From assembly GCA_045593165.1 (NCBI GenBank), contig JAZNWF010000004.1:216-64215 (forward strand): a stretch of DNA of 64,000 nt. Direction: 5' to 3'. This DNA comes from Eubacteriales bacterium (GTDB lineage: Bacteria > Bacillota > Clostridia > Oscillospirales > CAG-382). Both the position numbers and the translations under genes were made by a program. Positions 6,508 to 48,333 of this stretch are shown piece after piece; position 1 is the first letter of the stretch, and every line of letters begins with the position of its first letter. The notes under the pieces were generated by a model. That model was not told the DNA's origin. It made no database searches and worked only from the letters and a program-made list of their open reading frames with translations.

Positions 6508-6536
6508 TTGACTTTATCTGCAAAGCGTGCTAATAT
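6508..6536 (+). promoter_or_regulatory. Sigma-A promoter of T-box operon 1
   Basis: TTGACT (6508-6513), 17-nt spacer, TAATAT (6531-6536). Confidence 0.65.
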
Positions 6537-6542
6537 ACTAAA

Positions 6543-6829
6543 GAACTTAAATGCGTTTGAGCAGGAACAAGTAGATTTAGACGGGCCCATACAGAGAGTT
6601 GTCGGTTGGTGCGAGGCAACGGGAAAAGCTATTTTGAATTCATCCTGTGAGCTGTGCACCGAACAAAAGGTTATCTTTTAAGTAAGCTGCAACGGGCGTT
6701 CCCGTAACAGAACAAGAGTGTTATTGCACTCCCCGAGGCCGCAATCGCGAGAAAGCGGTAAATAGAGGTGGTACCACGAGTCTTCTCGTCCTCTGTATTC
6801 TTTTCAGGAATACAGAGGATTTATTTTTT
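6543..6829 (+). promoter_or_regulatory. T-box riboswitch leader, specifier UUC (Phe)
   Basis: Stem I has GA motifs (GAgCAGGA / TCCTGtGA), an AGAGAG bulge and a TGGTGCGAG distal loop. The specifier loop reads GAA-TTC-A (TTC at 6639-6641). The T-box sequence is GAGGTGGTACCACGAG (6765-6780). The terminator is CCTCTGTATTC/GAATACAGAGG plus a T-run (6790-6829). Confidence 0.85.
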
Positions 6830-6859
6830 GTAAATTATTTTAATATAAAGGTGATAAAA

Positions 6860-8167
6860 ATGGAACAAAGGTATTATCAAAAAGAAATTGAGACCATGCC
6901 CGTTGAGGAGATGAAAAAGCTCCAATCCGAAAAGCTGGTACGTCAGGTAAAGCACGTTTATGAAAACGTTCCTTATTACCGTAACCTTATGGATGAAAAG
7001 GGTGTTAAGCCCGAAGATATCAACGGTATTGAGGATCTTCACAAGCTTCCCTTCCTTACCAAAGCCGATCTTCGCGATGCATATCCTTACGGACTTCTCG
7101 CAAAGCCGCTTGACGAATGCGTACGTATTCAGTCTACCTCGGGCACAACCGGACGCCGTGTTGTTGCTTTCTACACACAAAATGACGTAGACCTTTGGGA
7201 AGATTGCTGTGCACGTGCTATCGTTGCTGCCGGCGGAACCAACAAGGACGTATGTCAGGTTGCATACGGCTACGGTCTTTTCACAGGCGGTCCCGGTCTT
7301 AACGGCGGCTCACACCGTGTAGGTTGCTTGACGCTTCCTATGTCTTCGGGTAATACCGAACGTCAGATTCAATTTATGACCGACCTTTCCGCAACTATTC
7401 TTTGCTGTACCCCCTCCTACGCCGCATATATCGGCGAAACCTTGAAGGAAAAGGGCTATAAGCCCGAGGATATTCCCTTGAAGGCAGGTATTTTCGGTGC
7501 AGAGCCATGGACCGAGGAAATGCGCAAAAATATTGAAGAAACCTTGGGTATAAAGGCATACGACATCTACGGTCTTACCGAAACCTCCGGCCCGGGCGTG
7601 TCGTTCGAATGCTGTGAGCAGACCGGTATGCATATCAACGAGGACCACTTCCTTGCGGAAATTATTGATCCCGACACGGGCGAGGTTCTTCCCGAAGGAA
7701 GCAAGGGCGAGCTTGTATTCACCTCGCTCGACAAGGAGGCGTTCCCGCTTTTACGTTACCGCACACGTGATATCTGCGTGCTCTCGCGCAAGAAGTGCTC
7801 CTGCGGACGTACGCTTATTAAAATGGCGAAGCCAATGGGCAGAACCGACGATATGCTTATCATCCGCGGCGTAAACGTGTTCCCGAGCCAGATCGAAACC
7901 GTACTTCTTAACGAAGGATACGAGCCTAATTACCAGATCATCGTAGACAGACAGAACAACAACGACACGTTCGACATTAACGTTGAAATGACAGCAGAAA
8001 AATTCTCGGACAAGGTAACCGAAATTCTTGCTATGGAAAAATCTCTTGCAAACGCGATGAAGACTATGCTCGGCATCAATCCTACCGTTCATCTTGTCGC
8101 ACCCAAGACTATTGCGCGAAGCGAAGGCAAGGCTGTCCGCGTAGTTGACAAGCGCAAATTGGTTTAA
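6860..8167 (+). CDS. paaK: Phenylacetate--CoA ligase family protein (PaaK / F390-synthetase-like adenylate-forming enzyme)
   Basis: ATG at 6860 lies 6 nt after AAGGTG; the tracked start at 6851 is a GTG inside the RBS. Motifs seen: YYRNLMDEKGVKPEDI, LPFLTKADLRDAYP, QSTSGTTGRRVV, YGLTE, MLIIRGVNVFPSQIE. Confidence 0.85.
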   Translation: MEQRYYQKEIETMPVEEMKKLQSEKLVRQVKHVYENVPYYRNLMDEKGVKPEDINGIEDLHKLPFLTKADLRDAYPYGLLAKPLDECVRIQSTSGTTGRRVVAFYTQNDVDLWEDCCARAIVAAGGTNKDVCQVAYGYGLFTGGPGLNGGSHRVGCLTLPMSSGNTERQIQFMTDLSATILCCTPSYAAYIGETLKEKGYKPEDIPLKAGIFGAEPWTEEMRKNIEETLGIKAYDIYGLTETSGPGVSFECCEQTGMHINEDHFLAEIIDPDTGEVLPEGSKGELVFTSLDKEAFPLLRYRTRDICVLSRKKCSCGRTLIKMAKPMGRTDDMLIIRGVNVFPSQIETVLLNEGYEPNYQIIVDRQNNNDTFDINVEMTAEKFSDKVTEILAMEKSLANAMKTMLGINPTVHLVAPKTIARSEGKAVRVVDKRKLV

Positions 8168-8188
8168 TTAAAGAAAGGGGATATCACA

Positions 8189-8620
8189 ATGGCAATTAAA
8201 CAGTTGACCGTATTCGTAGAAAACAAACAGGGCGCGCTCGTTTCGATTACCGACACGCTCGCACAGAACAACGTGAATATCAGAGCCCTCTCGATTGCCG
8301 AAACAAACGATTTCGGTATACTCCGTCTTATTGTAAATGATGAAGCCACCGCTGAAAAGACTCTTGCGGAAAAGGGTTATCTTATAAAGGTGACAGAGGT
8401 AGTCGGTGTTAAGATAGGCGATGCACCCGGCAAGCTTACCGCCGCGCTCGATGTGCTTGACAGATCGGGTATCAATATGGAATATCTTTACGCGTTTATG
8501 GCGCGTACCGAAAAGCACGCATACGTAGTTCTTCGCGTTGAAGACAATGAAATTGCAGAGGCTGCACTCGAAAACGCAGGCTTCCACCTCATTACAGACG
8601 CAGATATCTGCAAGCTTTAA
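8189..8620 (+). CDS. Tandem ACT-domain (amino-acid-binding) protein
   Basis: 143 aa. Two beta-alpha-beta-beta-alpha-beta ACT-like halves are visible (LTVFVENKQGALVSITDTLAQNNVNIRALS and VGVKIGDAPGKLTAALDVLDRSGINMEYLY). It is co-operonic with paaK. Confidence 0.75.
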   Translation: MAIKQLTVFVENKQGALVSITDTLAQNNVNIRALSIAETNDFGILRLIVNDEATAEKTLAEKGYLIKVTEVVGVKIGDAPGKLTAALDVLDRSGINMEYLYAFMARTEKHAYVVLRVEDNEIAEAALENAGFHLITDADICKL

Positions 8621-8637
8621 TTTAATTTAATTAAAAA

Positions 8638-8672
8638 GCATCGGACGTCGATTTGGCATCCGATGCTTTTTT
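8638..8672 (+). terminator. Rho-independent terminator
   Basis: GCATCGGA / TCCGATGC stem followed by TTTTTT. Confidence 0.8.
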
Positions 8673-8698
8673 GATTGCAGATATTTAGCGAAAAAGCC

Positions 8699-8727
8699 TT
8701 GACAAACAAGGCGTATTGTGATAAAAT
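8699..8727 (+). promoter_or_regulatory. Sigma-A promoter of T-box operon 2
   Basis: TTGACA (8699-8704), 17-nt spacer, TAAAAT (8722-8727), with an upstream TGtGa. Confidence 0.65.
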
Positions 8728-8734
8728 TCATCAC

Positions 8735-9016
8735 AATAATAAACGCAGTGATGCGGAATAGTATGCAAAAGCATTCGCCGTACAGAGAGATGCCGTTTGG
8801 TGCGAGGCATTGGGAATTCTTTGCAGAACTCACCGCGGAGCGGCTGCCGTGAAAATCAGACGTAAGGGCAGACGGGAGCTCCCGTAACAGAGTAAAGATG
8901 TTTTTGCATCTAAGGGCATCCGCAACGGATGAAGAAGAGTGGTACCGCGGAAAAGTTAACTTTGTTTTTAACGTTTTCGTCTCTTTGAACCGACAAGGAG
9001 ACGGGAGCGTTTTTTT
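8735..9016 (+). promoter_or_regulatory. T-box riboswitch leader, specifier CUC (Leu)
   Basis: GA motifs GAtGCGG / CCGCgGA; AGTA in the 5' specifier loop; upper helix TGCAAA/TTTGCA; AGAGAG bulge; TGGTGCGAG distal loop. The specifier reads GAA-CTC-A (CTC at 8829-8831). The T-box sequence is AGAGTGGTACCGCGG (8936-8950). A terminator hairpin at 8972-9009 is followed by T7. Confidence 0.85.
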
Positions 9017-9070
9017 GTCGGTTGAACTAAATCTTCTTTGAAAATTTCCGGATCACGAAAGGGTTAGAAA

Positions 9071-10459
9071 ATGAAAAAAATCAACATTTCCGATATCACA
9101 CTCAAAAAGCTTTCGCAGGATCGCAGCTTCTCGCTTCTTTTCCGTGAAAAGACCGCAATCGCAGTATGTGCAGATTCGCTCGGTGCAAACACTGTTGAGC
9201 TTGCACCCGTGAAGAACGCGCGCGAGGATGCTATCATTTGTAAAACGATCTCGCAAAACGTACGCAACGCAACACTAGCTATACCCGTAGGCTTTACTGC
9301 CGACGAGGTTCAGACTGCTTGGGAATGCATAAAGGATGCCAAATCTCCTCGTTTGCAGATAGAGATTCCCGCATCCACCGTTTTGATGGAATACACATAC
9401 CACATCAAATCCGAAAAAATGCTTACGAAAATTGCAGAATTGGTAAAATGTGCAAAATCGTTCTGCGAGGATATCGAATTCTCCGCGCTTGACGCAACGC
9501 GCGCAGACGTTGATTTTCTCGTTGCCGCGGCAAAGGAAGCAGAAAGTAACGGTGCGAGCATTATTACCATTTGCGATGATGCAGGAGTATCTCTCCCGCA
9601 AGATATCGCGAATCTTACCGCAAAGGTAAAGGAAAACGTATCCATACCTGTATACGTTCAGGTATCCGATAAAATCAACATGGCGGTCGCTTCTGCAATT
9701 GCGGCGATCTCCGCAGGTGCAGACGGTATCAAATGCGCTATGGCAGGCAAGGACGTTCTTCTCACCGGCGAGTTGGCTGATGCGCTTAAAGCCTGCAATT
9801 CGCAGATAGGCGCAGAAACCGATTTAAATAACACAAAAATCCATACAAGTATAGAGGATATGCTTTCCAATATCAATCACGAAGCATATGAAAACGAAGC
9901 AACAGTAAGTGAAAAGAAGAGAATGCTTCTCGATGCTGACAGCACAATTGCACAGGTAGCACATGCAACACAGATACTTGGCTACGAATTATCCGATTCC
10001 GATATCGGTAACGTACACAAGGCGCTTATCCAGGTATGTGAAAAGAAGGATACCGTAGGTGCAAAGGAGCTCGAAGCGCTTATTGCAAGCTCGGCTATGC
10101 AAGCTCCCTCTACATATCATCTCGAAAGCTACACTACCAACAGCAGTAATCTTGCAAGCTCTATGTCGCAGGTTACATTGAAATGCAACGGCGAAACCAT
10201 TTGCGGTGTCAGCACGGGCGACGGACCTATTGATTCGGCATTCCGAGCTATTGAACAGTGTATTGGCTTCCATTACGAATTAGACGATTTTCAGGTACAG
10301 TCCGTAACTGAAGGAAAGGAAGCGTTGGGCTCTGCTCTCGTACGCTTGCGTAACAACGGCAAGCTATATTCGGGTAACGGCATTTCGACCGATATTGTTG
10401 CGGCAAGCATAAGAGCATACATAAATGCACTCAACAAGATCGTATTCGAGGAGGCATAA
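9071..10459 (+). CDS. 2-isopropylmalate synthase (LeuA) paralog with degenerate catalytic motifs and an intact LeuA C-terminal regulatory domain
   Basis: It is collinear with LeuA, but DTTLRDGEQ is replaced by DITLKKLSQ, the H-x-H metal motif by QVSDK, and no HESGIHQDG is present. The C-terminus GDGPIDSAFRAIEQCI...GKEALGSALVRLRNNGKLYSGNGISTDIVAASIRAYINALNK matches the LeuA allosteric domain. Confidence 0.7.
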   Translation: MKKINISDITLKKLSQDRSFSLLFREKTAIAVCADSLGANTVELAPVKNAREDAIICKTISQNVRNATLAIPVGFTADEVQTAWECIKDAKSPRLQIEIPASTVLMEYTYHIKSEKMLTKIAELVKCAKSFCEDIEFSALDATRADVDFLVAAAKEAESNGASIITICDDAGVSLPQDIANLTAKVKENVSIPVYVQVSDKINMAVASAIAAISAGADGIKCAMAGKDVLLTGELADALKACNSQIGAETDLNNTKIHTSIEDMLSNINHEAYENEATVSEKKRMLLDADSTIAQVAHATQILGYELSDSDIGNVHKALIQVCEKKDTVGAKELEALIASSAMQAPSTYHLESYTTNSSNLASSMSQVTLKCNGETICGVSTGDGPIDSAFRAIEQCIGFHYELDDFQVQSVTEGKEALGSALVRLRNNGKLYSGNGISTDIVAASIRAYINALNKIVFEEA

Positions 10460-10460
10460 A

Positions 10461-12920
10461 ATGAAAATCGTATTCTCAACAAAAAACGTAAGCAGGTCAT
10501 CCTTTCTCGACACCTGCCGTTATGCGTACGATTACGGTTTTGAAGGCTTCGAAATATACGATGCCATCAAGGAGCGCAGTCAGCATCACGACAGCATTTT
10601 ACGCCGCGACCGTGTTTCAGACGCAAAAAGAAAGCTGATAAACCGCAATCTTTCCGTATCCGCACTCAGCTATCCCTATTCACTTGAACGTAACGACGCG
10701 AATGCGGAAACGATTTTGAAATACGTGGATATGGCGGCAAGCGCGGGCATCGCTTATATTATAGTCCGTATTGAAAATGAAGTTGAATTCGACGTATTAA
10801 AGGAAAAATTAGAGCCTGCAGTCAAGCGTGCAGAAATCTCCGACGTCGGTATACTTTTGGAAACCGTAGGATACCTTTCCGACACGGAAAAGGTAATAGA
10901 AATAATCAACCGCTTTTCTTCTGCCGCAATAGGCGCATCGTGGAACGTACGAGGCACTTATTTCGGCGCAGGTGAAACGGCTGAAACCACCATCAAGGTA
11001 CTCGGCGCATACATAAAATACGTACGCTTGGGCGATATGAAGGACGGCAAGACCGTGCTTATCGGAGAGGGCGAGCTTCCTGTGGAAAAGCTCCTCGGTG
11101 CGCTTTCCTCGCTGAATTTCGACGGATTTATCTGCGCGGCGTGGAACGAGGAAATAAACGACGCAGATATCGTGCTCACCCATTTCACAAATTACATCGC
11201 ATCTTTAAGCCGCGACAAAAAGGAGCACGACCGTTATTATTACAACCGCTCGAGAACCGGCACGTTCGTATGGAAGAAATACGACGTTATCGACGCAACC
11301 TTCTCCGACGTGCTTGACACAATGGTAGAAAACTACCCCGACCAGTACGCCTTCAAATACCCAACGCTTGATTACACGAGAACCTACGAGCAGTTCCGCC
11401 GTGACGTAGACGAATGTGCGGCAGCGCTCATTTCTTTGGGCGTAAAGGCGGGCGACCACGTCGCTGTTTGGGCAACCAACGTACCCGAATGGTATATTAC
11501 CTTCTGGGCAACCACAAAAATCGGTGCAGTTCTGGTAACGGTAAATACCGCATACAAGATTCACGAAATAGAATACCTGTTAAAGCAGTCCGACACTCAT
11601 ACGCTCGTTATGATCGAGTACTGTAAAGACATCAACTACAAGGAAATTATACAAGAGCTCTGCCCCGAGCTTGAAACGCTTACTCCCGGAAAACCGCTTT
11701 ATTCGAAAAACCTTCCCTTCTTGCGCAACGTTGTAACCGTTGGATTTTCGATGAACGGCTGTCTGGATTGGAATCAGATGCTTTCGCGTTCCTCGCTCGT
11801 TCCCCGCGAAGAAGTGCGCAGACGCGCTTCCTTGGTTAAGCCCGATGACGTATGTAATATGCAATATACCTCGGGTACGACAGGCTTCCCCAAGGGTGTT
11901 ATGCTCACTCACCGCAACATAGTAAACAACGGCAAGACAATCGGCGACAGAATGGACCTTTCCACCGCCGACCGTATGATGATACAGGTTCCGATGTTCC
12001 ATTGCTTCGGCATGGTGCTTTCGATGACCTCTATGATGACCCACGGCGGCACGCTTTGCCCTATTCCCTATTTCTCGCCCAAATCATCGCTTGCCTGCGT
12101 AAACGACGAGCACATAACCTGCTTCAACGGCGTTCCTACTATGTTTATCGCGATGTTCAACCACAAGGATTTTGCAAAAACCGACTTCTCGTATATGAGA
12201 ACCGGTATCATGGCAGGCGCAAACTGCCCTGCAGACCTTATGCGCCGTGCGGCAGATGAAATGAAGATGCGCGAGATAATCTCAGTTTACGGACAGACCG
12301 AGGCTTCGCCCGGCTGTACTATGGGCGAGGTAAACGAGGACATTGACCACCGCGTTGAAACGGTAGGCAGCCCCTTCCCCGGTGTTGAATGCAAGGTTAT
12401 CGACCCCGAAACGGGAGAAGAACTTCCCGACGGAGAAAGCGGCGAATTTGTAGCGCGCGGCTTCAATATTATGAAGGGTTATTACAAGATGCCCGAGGCA
12501 ACCGCACAAGCGATCGATGCTGACGGTTGGCTTCACAGCGGTGATATATGCTGTCGCACCCCCGACGGATACTACAAAGTAACCGGCAGATTGAAGGATA
12601 TGATAATCCGCGGCGGCGAAAACCTTTACCCGCGCGAAATCGAAGAGTTTTACCTTACCAACCCTAAGGTACGCGACGTTCAGGTTGTTGGCGTTCCCGA
12701 CGAAAAGTACGGCGAGGAATGCTGTGCGTGGGTAATACTCCACAAGGGCGAAACGGCAGACGAAAACGAAATGAAGGAATTCGGCAATGCGTTTATCGCG
12801 CGTCACAAGGTTCCGAGATATTTCCTTTTCGTCAATGAATTCCCGATGAATGCCGCAGGTAAAATACTCAAATACAAGATGCGTGACGAATCTGTTGAGA
12901 TTTTAGGGCTCAAAAAATAA
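10461..12920 (+). CDS. Fusion protein: xylose-isomerase-like TIM barrel (sugar phosphate isomerase/epimerase fold) plus an AMP-dependent acyl-CoA ligase (FadD/YngI-like)
   Basis: ATG at 10461 follows GAGGAGG; the tracked start at 10425 overlaps the upstream gene. About 270 N-terminal aa look like a TIM barrel (FEGFEIYD, ILLETVG, YVRLGD). The C-terminal part has AMP-binding motifs: MQYTSGTTGFPKGVMLTHRN, YGQTE, GWLHSGD, IIRGGENLYPREIE, AAGKILK. Confidence 0.75.
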   Translation: MKIVFSTKNVSRSSFLDTCRYAYDYGFEGFEIYDAIKERSQHHDSILRRDRVSDAKRKLINRNLSVSALSYPYSLERNDANAETILKYVDMAASAGIAYIIVRIENEVEFDVLKEKLEPAVKRAEISDVGILLETVGYLSDTEKVIEIINRFSSAAIGASWNVRGTYFGAGETAETTIKVLGAYIKYVRLGDMKDGKTVLIGEGELPVEKLLGALSSLNFDGFICAAWNEEINDADIVLTHFTNYIASLSRDKKEHDRYYYNRSRTGTFVWKKYDVIDATFSDVLDTMVENYPDQYAFKYPTLDYTRTYEQFRRDVDECAAALISLGVKAGDHVAVWATNVPEWYITFWATTKIGAVLVTVNTAYKIHEIEYLLKQSDTHTLVMIEYCKDINYKEIIQELCPELETLTPGKPLYSKNLPFLRNVVTVGFSMNGCLDWNQMLSRSSLVPREEVRRRASLVKPDDVCNMQYTSGTTGFPKGVMLTHRNIVNNGKTIGDRMDLSTADRMMIQVPMFHCFGMVLSMTSMMTHGGTLCPIPYFSPKSSLACVNDEHITCFNGVPTMFIAMFNHKDFAKTDFSYMRTGIMAGANCPADLMRRAADEMKMREIISVYGQTEASPGCTMGEVNEDIDHRVETVGSPFPGVECKVIDPETGEELPDGESGEFVARGFNIMKGYYKMPEATAQAIDADGWLHSGDICCRTPDGYYKVTGRLKDMIIRGGENLYPREIEEFYLTNPKVRDVQVVGVPDEKYGEECCAWVILHKGETADENEMKEFGNAFIARHKVPRYFLFVNEFPMNAAGKILKYKMRDESVEILGLKK

Positions 12921-12956
12921 CGAGGATAAAATTCCGCATTTTTTCCGGAAAAACTA

Positions 12957-12985
12957 TTGACAACGCGCTTAAATGAGAGTATAAT
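12957..12985 (+). promoter_or_regulatory. Consensus sigma-A promoter of T-box operon 3
   Basis: TTGACA (12957-12962), 17-nt spacer, TATAAT (12980-12985). Confidence 0.75.
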
Positions 12986-13009
12986 CCCTTACATCGAAAT
13001 TTGAATATC

Positions 13010-13272
13010 ACAAACAACTATGACGAAGACGGTCGGATTGCCAAATCTTCAGAGAGTTGGCGGTTGCTGCGAGCCAACGATGAAGCTTTCCAATGACCCA
13101 TCACTTCCGAGTTGGAGGACCGAAAATTTTATGAGTAGGCTCCTTCCGTAAAGCTGCGTTAAAGCAAGGGCTTGTCAGAGCCTATAAGGTGGCGGAATTT
13201 ATTTCCGCAATTTGAGTGGTACCGCGAGTTGTATGACCCGTCTCAAAGCAAAACTTTGGGACGGGTTTTTTG
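13010..13272 (+). promoter_or_regulatory. T-box riboswitch leader, probable specifier AUC (Ile)
   Basis: GA motifs GAcGAAG / CTTCcGA; AGAGAG bulge; GTTGGC/GCCAAC helix with a GCTGCGA distal loop. ATC-A (13100-13103) sits directly 5' of the basal helix, in the same register as the other two T-boxes. The T-box sequence is TGAGTGGTACCGCGAG (13213-13228). The terminator is ACCCGTC/GACGGGT plus T6 (13236-13272). Confidence 0.75.
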
Positions 13273-13331
13273 TTTTATTCAAATCTGAATTATCCGTATG
13301 GAGCGTACAGAAACGAAAGGAGCAAAACGAC

Positions 13332-15632
13332 ATGGAAATGAATTTGAAAGAGGTAGCAGGCAGAATCAAAGCGCTGCGCGAGGCAAAGGGCTATTCGCAG
13401 GAGGAGCTTGCAAAGCTTACCGGTGTATCGGTTGAGGATTACAAGCTTTTAGAGCAGGGCGAAACCGATTTCAGCTTTACCTTCATCTACAAGTGTGCAA
13501 AGGCGTGCAACGTTGAGGTTGTTGACATTATCGAGGGTACGAGTACTACTCTTACCTCGTTTGCAATTACCCGTAAGGGCGAGGGTCTTGAAATAATTAA
13601 AAAGCAGGCAGGCGTTTATTACAACCTTGCACCTAAATTCAAGGATAAGCTTGCCGAGCCGTTTTTGGTAAAGATGCCCTATATGGCAGAGGAGCAGAAC
13701 GCGCCTATCAAGCTTAATTCGCACAACGGTCAGGAATTTGACGTTATCGTTAAGGGCTCACTCAAGGTCCAGGTCGGCGGACATATTGCCGTTTTGAACG
13801 AGGGTGACTCGATATTCTACAACAGTATCATTCCCCACGGTATGATTGCTGTAAGCGAGGGCGGATGTGAATTCCACGCTGTCGTTTTGAATCCGCAGGA
13901 CGGTGACTACGCCGAATCCTATCCCGAAGCACCGTTCATCGCCGCAAAGACCGCCATCTCCGAAAACACGGTAAAAACCGTTGCAGATAACTTTATCGAA
14001 TCCTCATACGACGAAAACGGCGTATTTAACGGTATCGCCTTCAAGAACGACGACAAATTTAATTTCGCGTTTGACTGTGTAGATGCTATCGCAGAAAAGG
14101 ACCCCGACAAGCTTGCTATGCTTTGGGTTTCCAACGATAAAGCTGAACGCAGATTCACCTTCCGCGATATGAAGCGTTACTCGGCAAAGACAGCCAACTA
14201 TTTTGAATCGCTCGGTATTAAAAAGGGCGACACCGTAATGCTTGTATTGAAGCGTCATTATCAATTCTGGTTCTGTATGCTCGCACTCCACAAGATCGGC
14301 GCGATCGCTATCCCTGCTACCAACCAGCTTGTTGAGCACGACTTTACGTACAGATACAAGGCTGCACAGGTTAAAGCAATCGTATGCACCGCAGATGGCG
14401 AGGTTTCAACCGAGGCAGAAAAGGCTGCAAAGGATTTTCCCGGCATGATCAAGGTTCTCGTTGGCGGCAAAAAGGACGGTTGGAACGACTTTAATCTTGA
14501 AATGGAACGCTTCAGCACTCATTACGAACGCACCGAAGATTCTCCCTGCGGAAATGATCCGATGCTGATGCTTTTCACCTCCGGAACAACCGGTTATCCC
14601 CGCATCGCAACGCATTCCTTCAAGTATGCCTTAGGTCACTACCCCACCGCAAGACATTGGCACAACGTCAATCCCAACGGTCTGCACTTCACCATCTCCG
14701 ATACAGGCTGGGGCAAGGCGCTTTGGGGCAAGCTTTACGGACAATGGCTCTGTGAAGCGGCTACCTTCACCTATGACTTCGACAGATTCCGTTCGGAAGA
14801 TATTCTTCCCCTCTTTAAGCAATATAACATCACTACCTTCTGCGCACCTCCTACAATGTACCGATTCTTTATCAAGGAAGACCTTTCGAAATACGATCTT
14901 TCCTCTATCGAATATGCCACCACTGCAGGCGAAGCGCTCAACCCCGAGGTATTCAATCAGTTCAAAAAGGCTACCGGTCTTACCATTATGGAGGGCTTCG
15001 GTCAGACTGAAACCACGCTTTCTATCGCAAACTTCGTAGGATCTACTCCCAAGATTGGCTCTATGGGTAAGCCCAGTCCCTTGTACGACGTCAAGATCCT
15101 CGATCCCGACGGAAACGAATGTAAGACGGGCGACACGGGTGAGATCTGTATCAGCACCAAGAACGGAACTCCTTGCGGCTTATTTATCGGATATTATCTC
15201 GACGAGGAAAAGACCAACGACGTTTGGCACGACGGTTATTACCACACAGGTGACCAAGCGACTATGGACGAGGACGGATATCTTTGGTACGTTGGACGTA
15301 TCGACGACGTTATCAAATCTTCCGGTTACCGTATCGGCCCGTTCGAGATCGAAAGCGTTATTATGGAGCTTCCCTACGTGCTTGAATGTGCTATCACGCC
15401 CGTTCCCGATGAGATCCGCGGTCAGATCGTTAAAGCGACCATCGTTCTCACCAAGGGCACTGTAGGCACTGACGCACTGAAAAAGGAAATTCAGGAATAC
15501 GTAAAGACACACACCGCACCTTATAAGTATCCCAGAATAGTAGATTTCGTTGACGAGCTTCCCAAGACCATCAGCGGCAAGGTAAGACGTGTCGAGATCC
15601 GCAAAAAAGATTTGGAAAAATCCAACGGTTAA
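13332..15632 (+). CDS. Tripartite fusion: XRE-type HTH plus cupin plus an AMP-forming medium/short-chain acyl-CoA synthetase (ACS/MACS family)
   Basis: ATG at 13332 follows AAGGAG; the tracked start at 13212 lies inside the T-box terminator. HTH_3: LKEVAGRIKALREAKGYSQEELAKLTGVSVEDYKLLEQGE. Cupin: NSHNGQEFDVIVKGSL...GDSIFYNSIIPHGM. ACS core: LFTSGTTGYPRIA, GFGQTE, YHTGD, SSGYRIGPFEIES, ISGKVRR. Confidence 0.8.
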   Translation: MEMNLKEVAGRIKALREAKGYSQEELAKLTGVSVEDYKLLEQGETDFSFTFIYKCAKACNVEVVDIIEGTSTTLTSFAITRKGEGLEIIKKQAGVYYNLAPKFKDKLAEPFLVKMPYMAEEQNAPIKLNSHNGQEFDVIVKGSLKVQVGGHIAVLNEGDSIFYNSIIPHGMIAVSEGGCEFHAVVLNPQDGDYAESYPEAPFIAAKTAISENTVKTVADNFIESSYDENGVFNGIAFKNDDKFNFAFDCVDAIAEKDPDKLAMLWVSNDKAERRFTFRDMKRYSAKTANYFESLGIKKGDTVMLVLKRHYQFWFCMLALHKIGAIAIPATNQLVEHDFTYRYKAAQVKAIVCTADGEVSTEAEKAAKDFPGMIKVLVGGKKDGWNDFNLEMERFSTHYERTEDSPCGNDPMLMLFTSGTTGYPRIATHSFKYALGHYPTARHWHNVNPNGLHFTISDTGWGKALWGKLYGQWLCEAATFTYDFDRFRSEDILPLFKQYNITTFCAPPTMYRFFIKEDLSKYDLSSIEYATTAGEALNPEVFNQFKKATGLTIMEGFGQTETTLSIANFVGSTPKIGSMGKPSPLYDVKILDPDGNECKTGDTGEICISTKNGTPCGLFIGYYLDEEKTNDVWHDGYYHTGDQATMDEDGYLWYVGRIDDVIKSSGYRIGPFEIESVIMELPYVLECAITPVPDEIRGQIVKATIVLTKGTVGTDALKKEIQEYVKTHTAPYKYPRIVDFVDELPKTISGKVRRVEIRKKDLEKSNG

Positions 15633-15634
15633 TA

Positions 15635-15675
15635 AAAAAGCCACGCTTCCCAAACAGGAAGCGTGGTTTGTTTTT
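15635..15675. terminator. Bidirectional rho-independent terminator
   Basis: CCACGCTTCC / GGAAGCGTGG stem flanked by an A-run and a T-run, between convergent genes. Confidence 0.8.
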
Positions 15676-15703: not shown

Positions 15704-16924
15704 TTAAAGCGAATATTTACGGAATATCTTTTTACCCTTCTTGAGCTTGATGCCCTCAGCAAGCGCAGCTTCCGAAACGGTCTGACCGACGGAGGTTACC
15801 TTTTCACCGTCGATGCTGATGCCGCCCTGCTCGATAAGACGGCGGGCTTCACCCTTGCTCTTTGCAAGCTCGCCCAACACAAGAAGATCGATAACGCTGA
15901 TATTGCCGTCAACCAAAAGCGAAGCGTCTACAACGGTTGAGGGCATATTTGCGTCGTCGCCCTCGCCGCTGAAGAGTGCACGCGAGGTTGCTTCCGCCTT
16001 CTTTGCCTCTTCCTCGCCGTGAACGAGCTCGGTAAGGCTATACGCGAGTATGGATTTCTTTTCGTTGATGCGCGAACCGTCCCATTTTTCCATTTCGTCG
16101 ATTTCTTCGATAGGAATGAAGGTGAGCATACGGATGCACTTCATAACGTCAGCATCATCAACGTTGCGCCAATACTGATAAAATTCAAAGGGCGAGGTCT
16201 TGTTGGGATCGAGCCATACTGCATTGCCTGCGGTCTTGCCCATTTTCTTGCCCTGCGAGTCGGTAAGGAGGGTTATCGTCATCGCATTAGCGTCCTTGCC
16301 GAGCTTACGTCTTATAAGCTCGGTACCGCCGAGCATATTCGACCACTGGTCGTCGCCGCCAAACTGCAGATTGCAATCGTAGTTCTTGAAAAGATAATAG
16401 AAGTCGTAGGACTGCATTATCATATAGTTGAATTCGAGGAAGGAAAGACCCTTCTCCATTCTTTGCTTGTAGCATTCGGCTCTGAGCATATTGTTTACCG
16501 AGAAGCAGGCACCGACGTCGCGAAGCATATCAACGTAATTGAGGTTCAACAGCCAATCGGCGTTGGTGATCATCATTGCCTTATCTTCACCGAATTCGAT
16601 AAACTTTTCCATCTGCTTTTTGAAGCAATCGGCGTTATGGTCGATATCTTCCTTGGTGAGCATTTTTCTCATATCGCTTCTGCCCGAGGGGTCGCCGATC
16701 ATTGTCGTGCCGCCGCCGATAAGCGCAATAGGCTTGTTGCCCGCCATCTGAAGACGCTTCATAAGAGTGAGCGCCATAAAATGACCTGCGGTAAGGCTGT
16801 CTGCGGTGCAGTCAAAGCCGATATAAAACTTTGCCTTGCCGTTATTGACAAGCTCTCTGATCTCTTCCTCATTGGTTACCTGAGCTATCAGTCCGCGCGC
16901 TTTTAATTCTTCATAAATCTGCAT
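15704..16924 (-). CDS. tyrS: Tyrosine--tRNA ligase
   Basis: 406 aa. The class I HIGH-like motif (TADSLTAGHF), the KMGKT (KMSKS) motif and a C-terminal S4 domain are present. Confidence 0.95.
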   Translation of the reverse strand: MQIYEELKARGLIAQVTNEEEIRELVNNGKAKFYIGFDCTADSLTAGHFMALTLMKRLQMAGNKPIALIGGGTTMIGDPSGRSDMRKMLTKEDIDHNADCFKKQMEKFIEFGEDKAMMITNADWLLNLNYVDMLRDVGACFSVNNMLRAECYKQRMEKGLSFLEFNYMIMQSYDFYYLFKNYDCNLQFGGDDQWSNMLGGTELIRRKLGKDANAMTITLLTDSQGKKMGKTAGNAVWLDPNKTSPFEFYQYWRNVDDADVMKCIRMLTFIPIEEIDEMEKWDGSRINEKKSILAYSLTELVHGEEEAKKAEATSRALFSGEGDDANMPSTVVDASLLVDGNISVIDLLVLGELAKSKGEARRLIEQGGISIDGEKVTSVGQTVSEAALAEGIKLKKGKKIFRKYSL

Positions 16925-16998
16925 TTTTCCGATGCCTCCTATAAAATAAAGCCGAATAGGAAAAACCTTATCGGCGATAACTGTCCTTTGATTTGCAT

Positions 16999-17027
16999 AT
17001 TATATCATATTCGGTCATAAAAATCAA
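16999..17027 (-). promoter_or_regulatory. Sigma-A promoter for tyrS
   Basis: On the minus strand: TTGATT, 17-nt spacer, TATAAT. Confidence 0.55.
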
Positions 17028-17228
17028 TCCTTTTTAAGCATAAGTTAATGCTGCAGATAACGCCATTACAGCAAAAGGACACCTTTTGGCGCACCTGCGA
17101 TAAAGCAGGTGCACCTTCTCTTGCTGTACAGCAAGATATGTGTTATAATAAAAATAAGTCAATAATCTCTGCAAGGACAACTGAGGTATTCGTATGCTAA
17201 AATGTAAGCACAGAAAGGAGATGACTTT

Positions 17229-26149: not shown

Positions 26150-26225
26150 TGGTTGCGGAGACAGGATTCGAACCTGCGACCTCCGTGTTATGAGCCCGAC
26201 GAGCTACCAACTGCTCTACCCCGCG
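26150..26225 (-). tRNA. Initiator tRNA-Met (CAU)
   Basis: Minus strand: CGCGGGGTAGAGCAGTTGGTAGCTCGTCGGGCTCATAACACGGAGGTCGCAGGTTCGAATCCTGTCTCCGCAACCA. It has the C1xA72 mismatch, an encoded CCA and anticodon CAT. G30 faces A40, breaking one of the three G-C pairs. Confidence 0.9.
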
Positions 26226-26262
26226 ATATTGATTTATATTAACATAAACGTTACTTTTAAAA

Positions 26263-26351
26263 TGGTGCCGGAAACCGGGCTTGAACCGGTACGAGGGGTG
26301 AACCTCACTGGATTTTAAGTCCAGGGCGTCTGCCAATTCCGCCACTCCGGC
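26263..26351 (-). tRNA. tRNA-Leu (UAA), class II with a long variable arm
   Basis: Minus strand: GCCGGAGTGGCGGAATTGGCAGACGCCCTGGACTTAAAATCCAG...GGTTCAAGCCCGGTTTCCGGCACCA. The anticodon loop is CTTAAAA. Confidence 0.9.
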
Positions 26352-45660: not shown

Positions 45661-48333
45661 TTATTTAATCGTATATGTGCCTACGCAAGCGCGTTTTATC
45701 ATTATATAGTCAACGACATTGACCCTATCCTTTCCGCTTAAAAGCGCCGCCTTTAAATAGTTGCCCGAAAGCGTATAAGTGCCGAGAAAATGACGTTTTA
45801 CGTAAATATAATCGTAGCTTGACACCTTGCCGTCGCCGTCAACGTCGCCCTTTACGATCACAGTCGCCTTTACCGAGGACACGCCGTTTTCGGTCACATA
45901 TACCTTACATCCCGTACCGACAAGGTCCGCAGACGAAAGCTTATTTCCCGCACCGTCGGTTACGTATACCGTTCCCGTAAAGCCTTTTAACAATTCCTCT
46001 ACTGTGGTTTTGGCATATACGCCGTTCAAAATACCGTTCGATATGGAAAGATTTGAATTCGTTATACCAAACGCAGGCTCGGGCTCAACGTCATCGGGAA
46101 ATGCAGGCGCGTTTTCTGCCTTCAGCTTACCCGAAACCGTTACGTAATCTGCCGAGCAATAGCCGCTTGATGAATCGTATTCGGCATTATACCAGCCGTT
46201 TGATGCTTCTCCCACGATAGTAATTTCCGTATCTTTGGGAATCGTAACGATCTTATTTCCGCTTGTAGATGCACTATCACGAAGATTAAGGTTGGACGTT
46301 GTTGTGCCAGAATAAAGCAGCTTGATATATTGTGCCGACGAATATCCGTAAATAAAATTACCGTCTTTATCCGTACCGCTTACCTTATACCAACCGTTTT
46401 CAGCTTCACCGTAGATATATATCTGCGCTCCCAACGCGAACTGTCCGACGGACGTATAGCTTGAGCCGGCACCCTCGCGGACGTAAAGCGCAGAGGTCGT
46501 TCTGCCGTAATAAACGTCACCCGTTGCAACGGAAGTGCCCGGATTTGTAGTAGTGCCCGATGATTGCGAGTCAAGCAAAGCATATCCGTGCACCGCCACG
46601 AGATCGCCTGGGGTGACCAAGCCTACAACATAGCTCCAATCGCCGATTTTATTTATAACCGCATAATCCGTGCCCTCAGCAAGAGTGCGATAGGTAACAG
46701 ACGTTGTATCCGCTTCCGCATAAACCGTAACGTTTTCGGGCGCCGTACCGTACGTAACCGAAAAGCTATCGGGGATTATACGTATATATGAAGAGTTTAC
46801 ATATCCCGTTATTACCGTTCCCGAGGCGTTTGCGCCACTTACGTGATACCAATTCCCTATCGGTTCACCCATGACGGTAACCTTTGAAAGAAACGGGAGT
46901 GTTCCTGCACGATCCGAGGAATTTGACGCTTCCTTGCGCACCGTCAGTGATTCATATCCCGAAACGAGCCCCGAATATATGCGCTGTGACGATGCCACGG
47001 TAACCTCGATTTCACGTTCCGTGCCGCCTGCGGCTCTCGCCGTAATAACCGCGTTGCCTTTTGATTTCGCGGTGATCACACCCGATTGATCAACCGTTGC
47101 GACAGTTTCATCGCTGCTCAACCAAGAAAGATCGGTATCTACCGCATCGGCAGGCGAAATTGCGGTGAGAACCTCATATTTATCCCCTACCGCAAGCGTT
47201 ATGTTATCCTTAACGACCGCTATGGACGTAACGTTACGTTTATTGAGATAGATATTGGAAGCAACGGAATATCCGCTTACAAGAACGCCGTCGCTGTTAT
47301 ATCCCGTTACTTTATAGAACATATTACCGTTGGAATCGGTATATACGGTGTTATCAGTGACCTTGACCGCAGTACCGCGGTATATCTTACCGTTATTGCC
47401 CGCAGTCGCGGAGGGTGAGGTACGCACGTAAACATCACTGTCGATAACCGTTGCATTACAGTCAACGTAAACGATGCAGCAGGCTTCTCTGTCGTTTGCG
47501 AGGGTTGCGGATATAAGAGTCATACCGTGCGCATGCGCAGTTATGTTACCGTTATTATCTACGGTCGCAACAGACGGATTTGCGCTCGACCAGCTGATTT
47601 CGGACGGTGCTTTATCGGACGGATAGAACGAAAGCGCGACCTGATGCGTATCACCTATTTCCAAAAGAACGCGTTCCTCGTCCGCAACGGGAGCAACGAT
47701 TCCGTCGGAATCGGGAGTGAGGTCGTCATAATAGGTCATTCCGTACTGCTCGATAAGCGCTATTACGGTTTCGGCATAGCCGTTATCATCGCAATAGCCC
47801 GCATCGACAATTGCGTGTGCGGCAACAGAATAATCCTTTTCGCCCAATACTGCGGCATATTTCGACTCGTTAATAAAAAGCGAGCTATGGGTATACACGC
47901 TTTCAGCCCAGCTTGCATGTGCACGCCAAGCGGACGTGGTATTCACGTGGCTTTGACCCGATGAAAGCAGATAATCGGCATAGGAATTATACAGAATAGA
48001 GTTTTTTTGGTCGTATACCATCCCCGACCAGGTGCTGTATGCCTTTATACCGAACAGATTTCTGCCGCCTACGGGAAGCGAATAGCGTCCCCAGCCGCCC
48101 TCGTAAATACCTTGTGAAAGGGTTATAGAGGCAAGCACGTCGGTTTTGTAGTAATCCGCCCTTGCAAGAGAGCCGATAACACGGAAGAAATACTGCTGTA
48201 CCGTATTCAGCTTTTTAAAGTCGGTAGTTTCGGTTGGAACCGTATCATCGGCAAAAGCCGACAACGGCAGTGCAAATGCAGATAAAAGCATCACACATAC
48301 CATCACAACCGATATGTATCTGCAAAGTCTCAA
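45661..48333 (-). CDS. Secreted multidomain peptidoglycan hydrolase: N-acetylglucosaminidase plus 2 Big_2 plus multiple SH3b domains plus a C-terminal dockerin
   Basis: Signal peptide ...ALPLSAFA. Glucosaminidase region: LSQGIYEGGWGRYSLPVGGRNLFGIK. Big_2: SWSSANPSVATVDNNGNITA and SWLSSDETVATVDQSGVITA. Repeated SH3-like segment: WYKVSG...GYV.S.YI. C-terminal dockerin: GDVDGDGKVSSYDYIYVKRHFLG followed by a degenerate second repeat. Confidence 0.8.
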   Translation of the reverse strand: MRLCRYISVVMVCVMLLSAFALPLSAFADDTVPTETTDFKKLNTVQQYFFRVIGSLARADYYKTDVLASITLSQGIYEGGWGRYSLPVGGRNLFGIKAYSTWSGMVYDQKNSILYNSYADYLLSSGQSHVNTTSAWRAHASWAESVYTHSSLFINESKYAAVLGEKDYSVAAHAIVDAGYCDDNGYAETVIALIEQYGMTYYDDLTPDSDGIVAPVADEERVLLEIGDTHQVALSFYPSDKAPSEISWSSANPSVATVDNNGNITAHAHGMTLISATLANDREACCIVYVDCNATVIDSDVYVRTSPSATAGNNGKIYRGTAVKVTDNTVYTDSNGNMFYKVTGYNSDGVLVSGYSVASNIYLNKRNVTSIAVVKDNITLAVGDKYEVLTAISPADAVDTDLSWLSSDETVATVDQSGVITAKSKGNAVITARAAGGTEREIEVTVASSQRIYSGLVSGYESLTVRKEASNSSDRAGTLPFLSKVTVMGEPIGNWYHVSGANASGTVITGYVNSSYIRIIPDSFSVTYGTAPENVTVYAEADTTSVTYRTLAEGTDYAVINKIGDWSYVVGLVTPGDLVAVHGYALLDSQSSGTTTNPGTSVATGDVYYGRTTSALYVREGAGSSYTSVGQFALGAQIYIYGEAENGWYKVSGTDKDGNFIYGYSSAQYIKLLYSGTTTSNLNLRDSASTSGNKIVTIPKDTEITIVGEASNGWYNAEYDSSSGYCSADYVTVSGKLKAENAPAFPDDVEPEPAFGITNSNLSISNGILNGVYAKTTVEELLKGFTGTVYVTDGAGNKLSSADLVGTGCKVYVTENGVSSVKATVIVKGDVDGDGKVSSYDYIYVKRHFLGTYTLSGNYLKAALLSGKDRVNVVDYIMIKRACVGTYTIK

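Follow-up and report, generated by a model that had tools for sequence, protein, structure and literature searches.

Three consecutive operons, all on the forward strand, lie near one end of a 64,000-nucleotide stretch of contig JAZNWF010000004.1 from an Eubacteriales bacterium (assembly GCA_045593165.1), referred to here as the window. Each begins with a promoter-like site and a T box leader overlapped by an intrinsic terminator, and each contains a gene for a carboxylate-CoA ligase (Table 1). The first encodes a PaaK-type ligase and a protein composed of a pair of ACT domains; the second, a LeuA-like protein followed by a FadD-type ligase fused to a TIM barrel; and the third, a MACS-type ligase carrying helix-turn-helix (HTH) and cupin domains at its N terminus. 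An earlier, sequence-only reading of the locus had proposed that the three leaders sense tRNA-Phe, tRNA-Leu and tRNA-Ile, and that the ligases salvage phenylacetate and branched-chain acids into the corresponding amino acids.

Table 1. Features of the three T box operons, in coordinates of the window
Feature	Position	Strand	Basis
Promoter-like site, Phe operon	6508..6536	+	TTGACT, 17 nt, TG-TAATAT; 9/12 plus TG
Phe T box leader	6547..6796	+	RF00230 112.0 bits, E 6e-24
Intrinsic terminator, Phe leader	6788..6830	+	overlaps antiterminator 3' strand; terminator prediction 6788-6820; minimum free energy -31.3, z -4.1
PaaK-type aryl-acetate-CoA ligase, 435 aa, predicted substrate phenylacetate	6860..8167	+	Pfam AMP-binding + AMP-binding_C_2
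ACT-pair protein, 143 aa, candidate amino-acid sensor of the Phe arm	8189..8620	+	Pfam ACT_8 84 bits
Promoter-like site, Leu operon	8699..8727	+	TTGACA, 17 nt, TG-TAAAAT; 11/12 plus TG; conserved in orthologous leaders
Leu T box leader	8739..8987	+	RF00230 127.8 bits, E 5e-28
Intrinsic terminator, Leu leader	8970..9018	+	terminator prediction (8970-9011) and fold
LeuA paralogue without catalytic residues, 462 aa, candidate leucine sensor	9071..10459	+	Pfam HMGL-like + LeuA_dimer
TIM barrel::FadD-type acyl-CoA ligase fusion, 819 aa, predicted substrate isovalerate	10461..12920	+	Pfam AP_endonuc_2 + AMP-binding + AMP-binding_C
Promoter-like site, Ile operon	12957..12985	+	TTGACA, 17 nt, TATAAT; 12/12; conserved in orthologous leaders
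Ile T box leader	13011..13248	+	RF00230 106.8 bits, E 1e-22
Intrinsic terminator, Ile leader	13235..13272	+	terminator prediction (13235-13267) and fold
HTH_3 + Cupin_2 + MACS-type acyl-CoA ligase fusion, 766 aa, predicted substrate 2-methylbutyrate	13332..15632	+	Pfam
Two-way terminator between Ile ligase and convergent tyrS	15638..15669	both	

In a T box, an uncharged tRNA pairs both with a specifier codon and with a UGGN bulge, in which a U at the variable position matches an A73 discriminator, and the antiterminator is thereby stabilised. Scanning the whole window against Rfam found three matches to this family (RF00230), all on the forward strand and all spanning the full length of the model (positions 1-219). 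Membership was taken to need a full-length match scoring at least the gathering score of 93 bits; the Phe, Leu and Ile leaders score 106.8-127.8 bits (E 1e-22 to 5e-28), in agreement with the sequence-only description of three complete leaders, each with its own promoter and overlapping terminator. Alignment to the covariance model, with the coordinates verified on the sequence, places the specifiers UUC at 6639-6641 (followed by A6642), CUC at 8829-8831 and AUC at 13100-13102 (both followed by A), which are the codons that had been read by eye as TTC, CTC and ATC. The common register that had been described also recurs in all three alignments, as GAA-UUC-A, GAA-CUC-A and AUC-A, then the basal helix and the K-turn GA, as does the UGGU bulge (6769-6772 in the Phe leader).

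The remaining hallmarks of the family are likewise present. Stem I has the K-turn GA, a codon followed by a purine and the platform formed by the AG bulge and distal loop, with ACAGAGAG and GGUGCGAG both seen; the distal loop is GGUGCGAG or GCUGCGAG in the three leaders, and the AGAGAG bulge appears in the same RF00230 alignments. The T box sequence is (G/A)GUGGUACC(A/G)CG with the UGGU bulge, GGUGGUACCAC and AGUGGUACCGC are found in the alignments of the antiterminator, and the competing terminator hairpin dominates the minimum-energy structure of each unliganded leader (z -3.1 to -4.1). Hence these are three bona fide transcriptional T boxes with Phe, Leu and Ile specifiers, for which a chance match is ruled out; as RNA elements they are unexceptional examples of a family already known. 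A AAATTTGAATATCAC stretch (12986-13010), conserved in orthologous leaders, separates the -10 box from the Ile T box. When an operator for the HTH domain was sought in the aligned promoter regions, this stretch proved not to be palindromic; it may mark where transcription starts or where a protein binds.

Relatives of the locus were collected by scanning one genome per species, in which at least 596 stretches encode relatives of the TIM-barrel ligase; 80 loci, with identities of 68-91%, were kept. All are from metagenome-assembled genomes, and the closest homologues are in uncultured assemblies labelled as Oscillospiraceae and Clostridia, from ruminant and other animal guts. The LeuA-like gene is immediately upstream of the TIM-barrel ligase gene at every locus with upstream DNA (76/76), and of the 73 loci where the leader sequence is long enough, 63 have a T box ahead of the two genes. 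The specifier was read in 57 of these Leu-type leaders, being CUC in 53, CUG in two and CCC in two, whilst the leaders of the HTH-cupin-MACS ligases have AUC in 29 cases and GUA in 19. For 17 leaders the specifier was assigned by eye from the K-turn register; Rfam alignments of nine leaders from loci L044, L060 and L066 agree with the CUC, AUC and GUA readings. The pairing is never crossed: no Leu codon stands before an HTH-cupin ligase, and no Ile or Val codon before the Leu genes. Specifier and function of the gated gene thus agree, and the specifier is retained across orthologues. At 81-91 bits (E 1e-16 to 1e-18), the GUA leaders fall slightly short of the RF00230 gathering score, and all 19 of the ligases behind them fall into a single clade, apart from the Ile-gated ligases. 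The relatives therefore possess, in addition to the other three, a valine arm of the same design.

It is in the relatives that the enzymes expected downstream of an acyl-CoA ligase are encoded alongside it. Seventeen of the 19 Val-gated ligase genes are followed, on the same strand and with gaps of less than 300 nt, by genes for the delta, alpha, beta and gamma subunits of a VOR-type 2-oxoacid oxidoreductase; L044 (15132-22049: GUA T box, HTH-cupin-MACS ligase, P-loop protein, VOR) is an example, and the Val-gated arm also occurs in L060, L066 and 16 other loci. A class IV branched-chain aminotransferase is part of the same run in ten of the 17, lying directly after the ligase in eight and after VOR in two. 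The leucine arm has similar arrangements, with aminotransferase and VOR genes directly after the TIM-barrel ligase gene in 11 loci; in L073, L075 and L080 they follow it behind a CUC T box; in L058 they come after an AUC-gated ligase, with one unclassified open reading frame in between. In 31 of the 80 species, VOR genes lie no more than 10 kb away from the Leu genes. The enzyme of the relatives has four subunits, alpha, beta, gamma and a 68 aa delta subunit with 2x[4Fe-4S]; the alpha subunit scores 552 bits against the NCBIfam VorB cut-off of 399, and the aminotransferase 512 bits against a cut-off of 307 for the branched-chain aminotransferase model. A P-loop protein of the MinD/ParA/Mrp type precedes the VOR genes in 17/17 Val-gated loci. 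In L073 (13536-14207) and 31 other loci, this 223 aa protein (GHYGSGKT; no Pfam match) is encoded directly upstream of the delta subunit gene, and might serve VOR as an Fe-S or assembly factor.

The Phe operon has an equivalent context. PaaK relatives from metagenomes at 89-91% identity have a UUC T box upstream, and orthologues at 76-82% identity lie in iorA-iorB-paaK-ACT operons in 21 of the 42 contexts with enough upstream DNA, the IorA protein encoded upstream of paaK scoring 729 bits against an NCBIfam cut-off of 651. The ACT protein is always encoded after paaK in the relatives. The synteny with IOR and VOR genes that the sequence-only reading had proposed looking for is thus present in related genomes, in the Val-gated loci and in the iorAB-paaK operons. 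The window ligase has the architecture of PaaK, a short AMP-binding core with AMP-binding_C_2 in about 435 aa, and matches the solved PaaK structures of Burkholderia (PDB 2Y4O, 414 bits) and Bacteroides (4R1L, 401 bits); at 529.1 bits it falls below the cut-off of 646.3 for the TIGR02155 equivalog, and its activity on phenylacetate is predicted from the iorAB-paaK-ACT context of its orthologues. At L101 (4357-7574) and similar metagenome loci, a plain AMP-binding ligase (544 aa) and a sodium:solute symporter are often encoded upstream of iorAB-paaK-ACT; the symporter may provide the acid uptake step.

The three ligase domains of the window had been described as unrelated; they are in fact distant members of one superfamily (the ANL fold), being about 24-25% identical to one another. 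Their assignment to the PaaK, FadD and MACS types is confirmed by their domains, but the N-terminal TIM barrel of the Leu ligase and the HTH_3 and Cupin_2 domains of the Ile ligase had gone undescribed. Over residues 240-761 (520 residues), the Ile ligase matches MacsMa of Methanosarcina acetivorans (PDB 3ETC) with 677 bits. It has Gly (in GFGQTET) at the position of the pocket Trp of Acs and an alternative Trp in ARHWHNV, aligning with FGQTET and AKYWQNV in MacsMa. A Gly for the Acs Trp together with an alternative conserved Trp is the mark of a Macs-type acyl pocket, and the roles of these residues have been described (PMC10455477). MacsMa adenylates C3-C8 acids; its preferred substrate is 2-methylbutyrate, with which the CoA step is completed (PMC10455477). 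The best NCBIfam match of the Ile ligase is MbcS, at 451.5 bits, which is below the cut-off of 850 for this equivalog. The MbcS of S. aureus activates 2-methylbutyrate and isobutyrate, and uses isovalerate poorly (PMC10026030), which fits with the use of a different type of ligase for Leu, whilst its two good substrates match the Ile- and Val-gated paralogues. A GWGK motif has its Gly in the Ile-gated ligases and MacsMa, and Ala in the Val-gated ligases; this is the only site in the ligase domain that cleanly separates the groups, and is suggestive only as a mark of specificity.

The similarity to MbcS brings with it a different account of the Leu and Ile operons, in which the ligases act as MbcS does in S. 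aureus: scarcity of Leu or Ile would also leave the cell short of the branched acyl-CoA primers derived from 2-oxoacids, and exogenous branched acids would be activated for branched-chain fatty-acid synthesis, sparing the amino acids. MbcS is, after all, the best NCBIfam match of the Ile ligase; it feeds FabH with 2-methylbutyryl-CoA and isobutyryl-CoA (PMC10026030), and one acyl-CoA could serve both fates. Nevertheless, we consider it unlikely that the supply of lipid primers is the role of these ligases: the aminotransferase and VOR with which they share operons in the relatives would be superfluous for this purpose, there are no fab genes among the recurrent neighbours in the relatives' loci, and the LeuA-regulatory and ACT modules suggest that amino-acid levels are what is being kept in balance. 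Furthermore, a phenylacetate-type ligase is placed behind the Phe T box in just the same way, and phenylacetyl-CoA would be an unusual lipid primer.

The Leu operon starts not with its ligase gene but with the LeuA-like gene, which had not been described previously. In its product the DRE-TIM barrel is degenerate, but the LeuA_dimer regulatory domain (PF08502, 112 bits), the allosteric C-terminal domain of LeuA, is intact and is the most conserved part of the protein, with a column identity of about 0.9 in orthologues. Curated LeuA models match it far below their cut-offs, the best at 255 bits against 532. Comparison with solved LeuA proteins reveals that the catalytic and metal-binding residues are replaced: LRDGEQ has become LKKLSQ, the Glu of EFSxED is Leu (EFSALD) and HxH is QVS (VQVSD). 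This loss is kept in 55 orthologues, and a search of 1.8 billion representatives found the degenerate motifs in more than 100 clusters at 50% identity, whose full-length members measure about 455-490 aa; the true LeuAs recovered alongside them are about 505 aa long and keep TLRDGEQ and HCHND. Hence the gene is rejected as a working leuA, encoding isopropylmalate synthase, because the catalytic residues are replaced. The earlier statement had been that the gated genes are not classical biosynthetic genes; this gene looks classical but has lost its catalytic residues. We infer that the protein is a leucine-binding partner of the TIM-barrel ligase and corresponds to the Phe arm's ACT protein, a position that is perhaps taken by the cupin in the Ile and Val arms. 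It is also possible that the altered barrel holds a different catalytic role.

The xylose-isomerase-like TIM barrel of the Leu ligase occupies approximately residues 1-285; sequence searching gave no usable PDB match to this domain, and the AlphaFold model of it, for which the underlying alignment was shallow, is of low quality (pLDDT 53). The homologues of the fusion are likewise 819 aa long. Its ligase part contains the TSGTTGFPK and YGQTE motifs and scores 666 bits against PRK12583, under the cut-off of 832. A gene for an Amidohydro_2 protein (267 aa, of a TIM-barrel metal hydrolase/decarboxylase family) adjoins the Leu ligase in 27 of 80 loci, for example L015 (12468-13271), and a relative with 30% identity recurs beside iorAB-paaK clusters, for example at L101 (3459-4286).

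These domains leave some room for an account in which the regulatory logic is the same and the substrates are others: the TIM-barrel ligase might act on an acid pre-processed by the TIM barrel or the amidohydrolase, and the Ile ligase on, for instance, propionate, which would lead through 2-oxobutyrate into the normal Ile pathway. The substrate of the Leu ligase is, indeed, deduced from context, the TIM barrel and the Amidohydro_2 neighbour might have such a processing role, and the range of acids adenylated by MacsMa extends down to C3 (PMC10455477). That the substrates differ in this way is nonetheless improbable, given that MacsMa completes the CoA step with its preferred 2-methylbutyrate, that the Ile ligase has Gly where Acs has its pocket Trp, and that the pair of Ile and Val paralogues mirrors the two substrates of MbcS; the VOR-type enzyme and branched-chain aminotransferase adjoining the ligases in relatives also fit a direct, one-step route.

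A further lineage among the relatives has all of these genes merged into a single operon, in the order LeuA-like, ligase, branched-chain aminotransferase, P-loop, VOR, ligase, and no T box was found there in L029, L030, L033, L035, L038 or L055. Instead, these six species have a leader with a promoter, a ribosome-binding site and an open reading frame of 34-43 codons, for example MNMQSFFTANILLLIAIIILAITKPDKNSAVCRVFK, in which ten of 12 codons are for Ile or Leu; this is followed by hairpins that pair the run of Ile codons, then by a strong terminator (L038, 8396-8506). The arrangement looks like a ribosome-stalling attenuator, which would once more make expression depend on how far tRNA-Ile and tRNA-Leu are charged.

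Rumen and hindgut bacteria need branched-chain and aryl acids, and 'isoacid' supplements are used in ruminant feeding. Allison is said to have carried out labelling work on the route from acid to amino acid in rumen bacteria, and to our knowledge the pathway is known only from such labelling work of the 1960s. The rumen literature describes the conversion of isovalerate to Leu, 2-methylbutyrate to Ile, isobutyrate to Val and phenylacetate to Phe, with passage of label from the acid into the amino acid known for both mixed rumen cultures and isolates (PMC7356843). The operons in the window could supply such a route as follows. Each would be an independent unit in which a sigma-A promoter leads into a T box leader and then an AMP-forming carboxylate-CoA ligase, with a companion that possibly senses the end product. 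When tRNA-Phe, tRNA-Leu or tRNA-Ile is uncharged, its anticodon would pair with UUC, CUC or AUC in Stem I and its free NCCA end with the UGGU bulge, stabilising the antiterminator over the otherwise favoured terminator and allowing transcription of the ligase gene. Exogenous fermentation acids would then be activated: phenylacetate by PaaK, isovalerate by the TIM barrel::FadD fusion and 2-methylbutyrate by the HTH-cupin::MACS fusion. An oxidoreductase encoded outside the window, IOR for Phe and VOR for Leu and Ile, would carboxylate the acyl-CoA reductively with reduced ferredoxin to give phenylpyruvate, 4-methyl-2-oxopentanoate or 3-methyl-2-oxopentanoate, from which an aminotransferase would produce Phe, Leu or Ile. 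As a second layer, the ACT pair, the LeuA-like protein and the HTH-cupin domains may each provide end-product feedback on their own ligase.

VOR, IOR and aminotransferases are reversible, running oxidatively in peptide-fermenting organisms, such that the same enzymes might in principle serve amino-acid fermentation or the overflow of acids. A catabolic role is very hard to reconcile with the control of these genes, however, as induction by uncharged tRNA, or by ribosome stalling at Ile and Leu codons in the leader-peptide lineage, switches them on in response to a shortage of the amino acid; a catabolic signal would act in the opposite sense. The AMP-forming ligases, moreover, spend ATP on the thioester, whereas the catabolic direction would conserve the thioester energy by means of ADP-forming synthetases or a phosphotransacylase and kinase. 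We therefore regard such a role as highly improbable.

A number of observations do weigh against the proposed synthetic route. The 64 kb window encodes no 2-oxoacid oxidoreductase, aminotransferase or acid transporter that could be detected by Pfam scans of 39 open reading frames and by tblastn with the VOR, branched-chain aminotransferase, P-loop and amidohydrolase proteins of the relatives. None of the three ligases reaches the cut-off of its NCBIfam equivalog. The Leu ligase lacks a close characterised relative, its best PDB match being at 262 bits, and isovalerate is predicted as its substrate from context alone, namely the CUC specifier and the VOR and aminotransferase genes that adjoin it in relatives; the TIM barrel, the LeuA-like protein and the Amidohydro_2 gene that is often found next door might indicate that some other chemistry is at work. 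The predicted products of the Ile- and Val-gated ligases, 2-methylbutyryl-CoA and isobutyryl-CoA, are also primers for fatty-acid synthesis (PMC10026030). Ten of the 73 loci have no T box before the Leu genes, and a few specifiers are unexpected: CCC in place of CUC in L009 (~8400) and L025 (~2690), both from Ructibacterium assemblies, and UGC in place of UUC before paaK in L012 (~2780). These may represent a shift in specificity, decay or assembly error.

Weighing these points against the conserved pairing of specifiers with ligases, the VOR, aminotransferase and IOR genes in the operons of relatives and the match to MacsMa, we consider that the T box-gated ligases probably carry out the acid activation step in the synthesis of Phe, Leu and Ile by reductive carboxylation. 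Comparative genomics supports the interpretation of the locus as tRNA-sensed acid salvage, which holds in every part open to computational checking. The substrates, the direction of flux, the response to tRNA and the roles of the ACT, LeuA-regulatory and cupin modules as sensors are predictions from sequence. A more far-reaching proposal, which is plausible but which we hold only tentatively, at somewhat less than even odds, is that these operons contain the missing acid-activation genes of the rumen route. They would then form a modular regulon for four amino acids, Val being included in the relatives, in which each ligase has its own T box and sensor, a large and previously unrecognised LeuA family without catalytic residues senses leucine on behalf of an isovalerate-CoA ligase, and the HTH-cupin domains allow the Ile and Val ligases to serve as DNA-binding regulators as well.

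The genes that activate branched-chain and aryl acids, and the signals that control them, have so far been poorly defined. The locus and its relatives in at least 596 species offer four candidate ligase families with predicted substrates, together with VOR and aminotransferase partners, and uncharged tRNA would be a direct readout of when the cell uses the salvage route. An old labelling observation could in this way be turned into testable genetics and enzymology, with candidate genes and a control logic, and the same genes might act as markers of acid-dependent amino-acid synthesis in metagenomes. The T box regulon would be extended to salvage ligases and oxidoreductases. In addition, the locus brings to light a large family of LeuA-like proteins that are at risk of being misannotated as isopropylmalate synthases, which they cannot be.

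Several other features of the window lie outside the three operons. The tyrS gene that converges on the Ile operon (15704-16924, reverse strand) has no T box upstream, none being found in 16925-17228 even at E values up to 1, unlike its counterpart in the relative L159, which is preceded by one. Genes for tRNA-Met(CAU) and tRNA-Leu(UAA) are present at 26150-26351 on the reverse strand; neither is the tRNA-Leu(GAG) expected for CUC. A Gut-1 RNA (RF01706, 58.6 bits), a motif without assigned function known from gut metagenomes, is found at 1092-1168 on the forward strand. A cell-wall glucosaminidase of 890 aa, with Big_2, SH3 and type I dockerin domains, is encoded at 45661-48333 on the reverse strand, which hints at a cellulosome-type scaffold in the organism.

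The sequence-only reading had also placed T box control of acyl-CoA ligases outside the classical regulon. This agrees with the literature searched, in which no link was found between T boxes and CoA ligases or VOR/IOR-type oxidoreductases, although the search was partial and an earlier passing mention is possible; the T box survey of Wels (2008) has no mention of either CoA or oxidoreductase. What appears to be new, therefore, is the use of salvage ligases as T box targets, along with VOR and an aminotransferase in relatives, with one switch and one putative sensor for each amino acid, as well as the family of LeuA paralogues without catalytic residues and the HTH-cupin-ligase fusions.

The device itself is shared with the T box-controlled aminoacyl-tRNA synthetase genes and amino-acid supply operons of Firmicutes, such as ilv-leu with its Leu T box: all have the K-turn, specifier loop, distal platform, UGGN bulge and competing terminator of RF00230. 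The logic proposed for the window is also that of the supply operons, with uncharged tRNA calling for supply of the amino acid that it lacks; the difference is that the genes gated here encode salvage carboxylate-CoA ligases, joined by VOR and an aminotransferase in relatives, rather than aminoacyl-tRNA synthetases, de novo enzymes or transporters. A T box upstream of leuA is a known pairing (PMC2494555), but the leuA-like gene of the window lacks the catalytic residues: its product has the same two-part layout as isopropylmalate synthase, a DRE-TIM barrel and a LeuA_dimer domain, whilst the Arg-Asp pair, the Glu of EFSxED and the HxH metal ligands have all been replaced.

The Ile ligase resembles MacsMa and MbcS, as judged by the match to 3ETC, the Macs-type Gly and the pocket Trp. 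It differs from them in carrying N-terminal HTH_3 and Cupin_2 domains, in being divided into Ile- and Val-gated paralogues, in failing to reach the MbcS cut-off, and in the linkage of this type of ligase to VOR and an aminotransferase rather than to fatty-acid synthesis. The aryl-acid route to aromatic amino acids is found in rumen bacteria and in Methanococcus maripaludis. Like the iorAB-paaK-ACT clusters of anaerobes, the window has a PaaK-type ligase gene followed by one for an ACT-pair protein; in the window and its closest relatives, however, paaK-ACT is detached from iorAB and placed behind a Phe T box. Finally, the clusters of the six T box-less relatives resemble branched-chain leader-peptide attenuators in having a short Ile/Leu-rich open reading frame, hairpins and a terminator, whereas the window uses T boxes, one for each amino acid, the peptide form being found only where the genes merge into a single operon.

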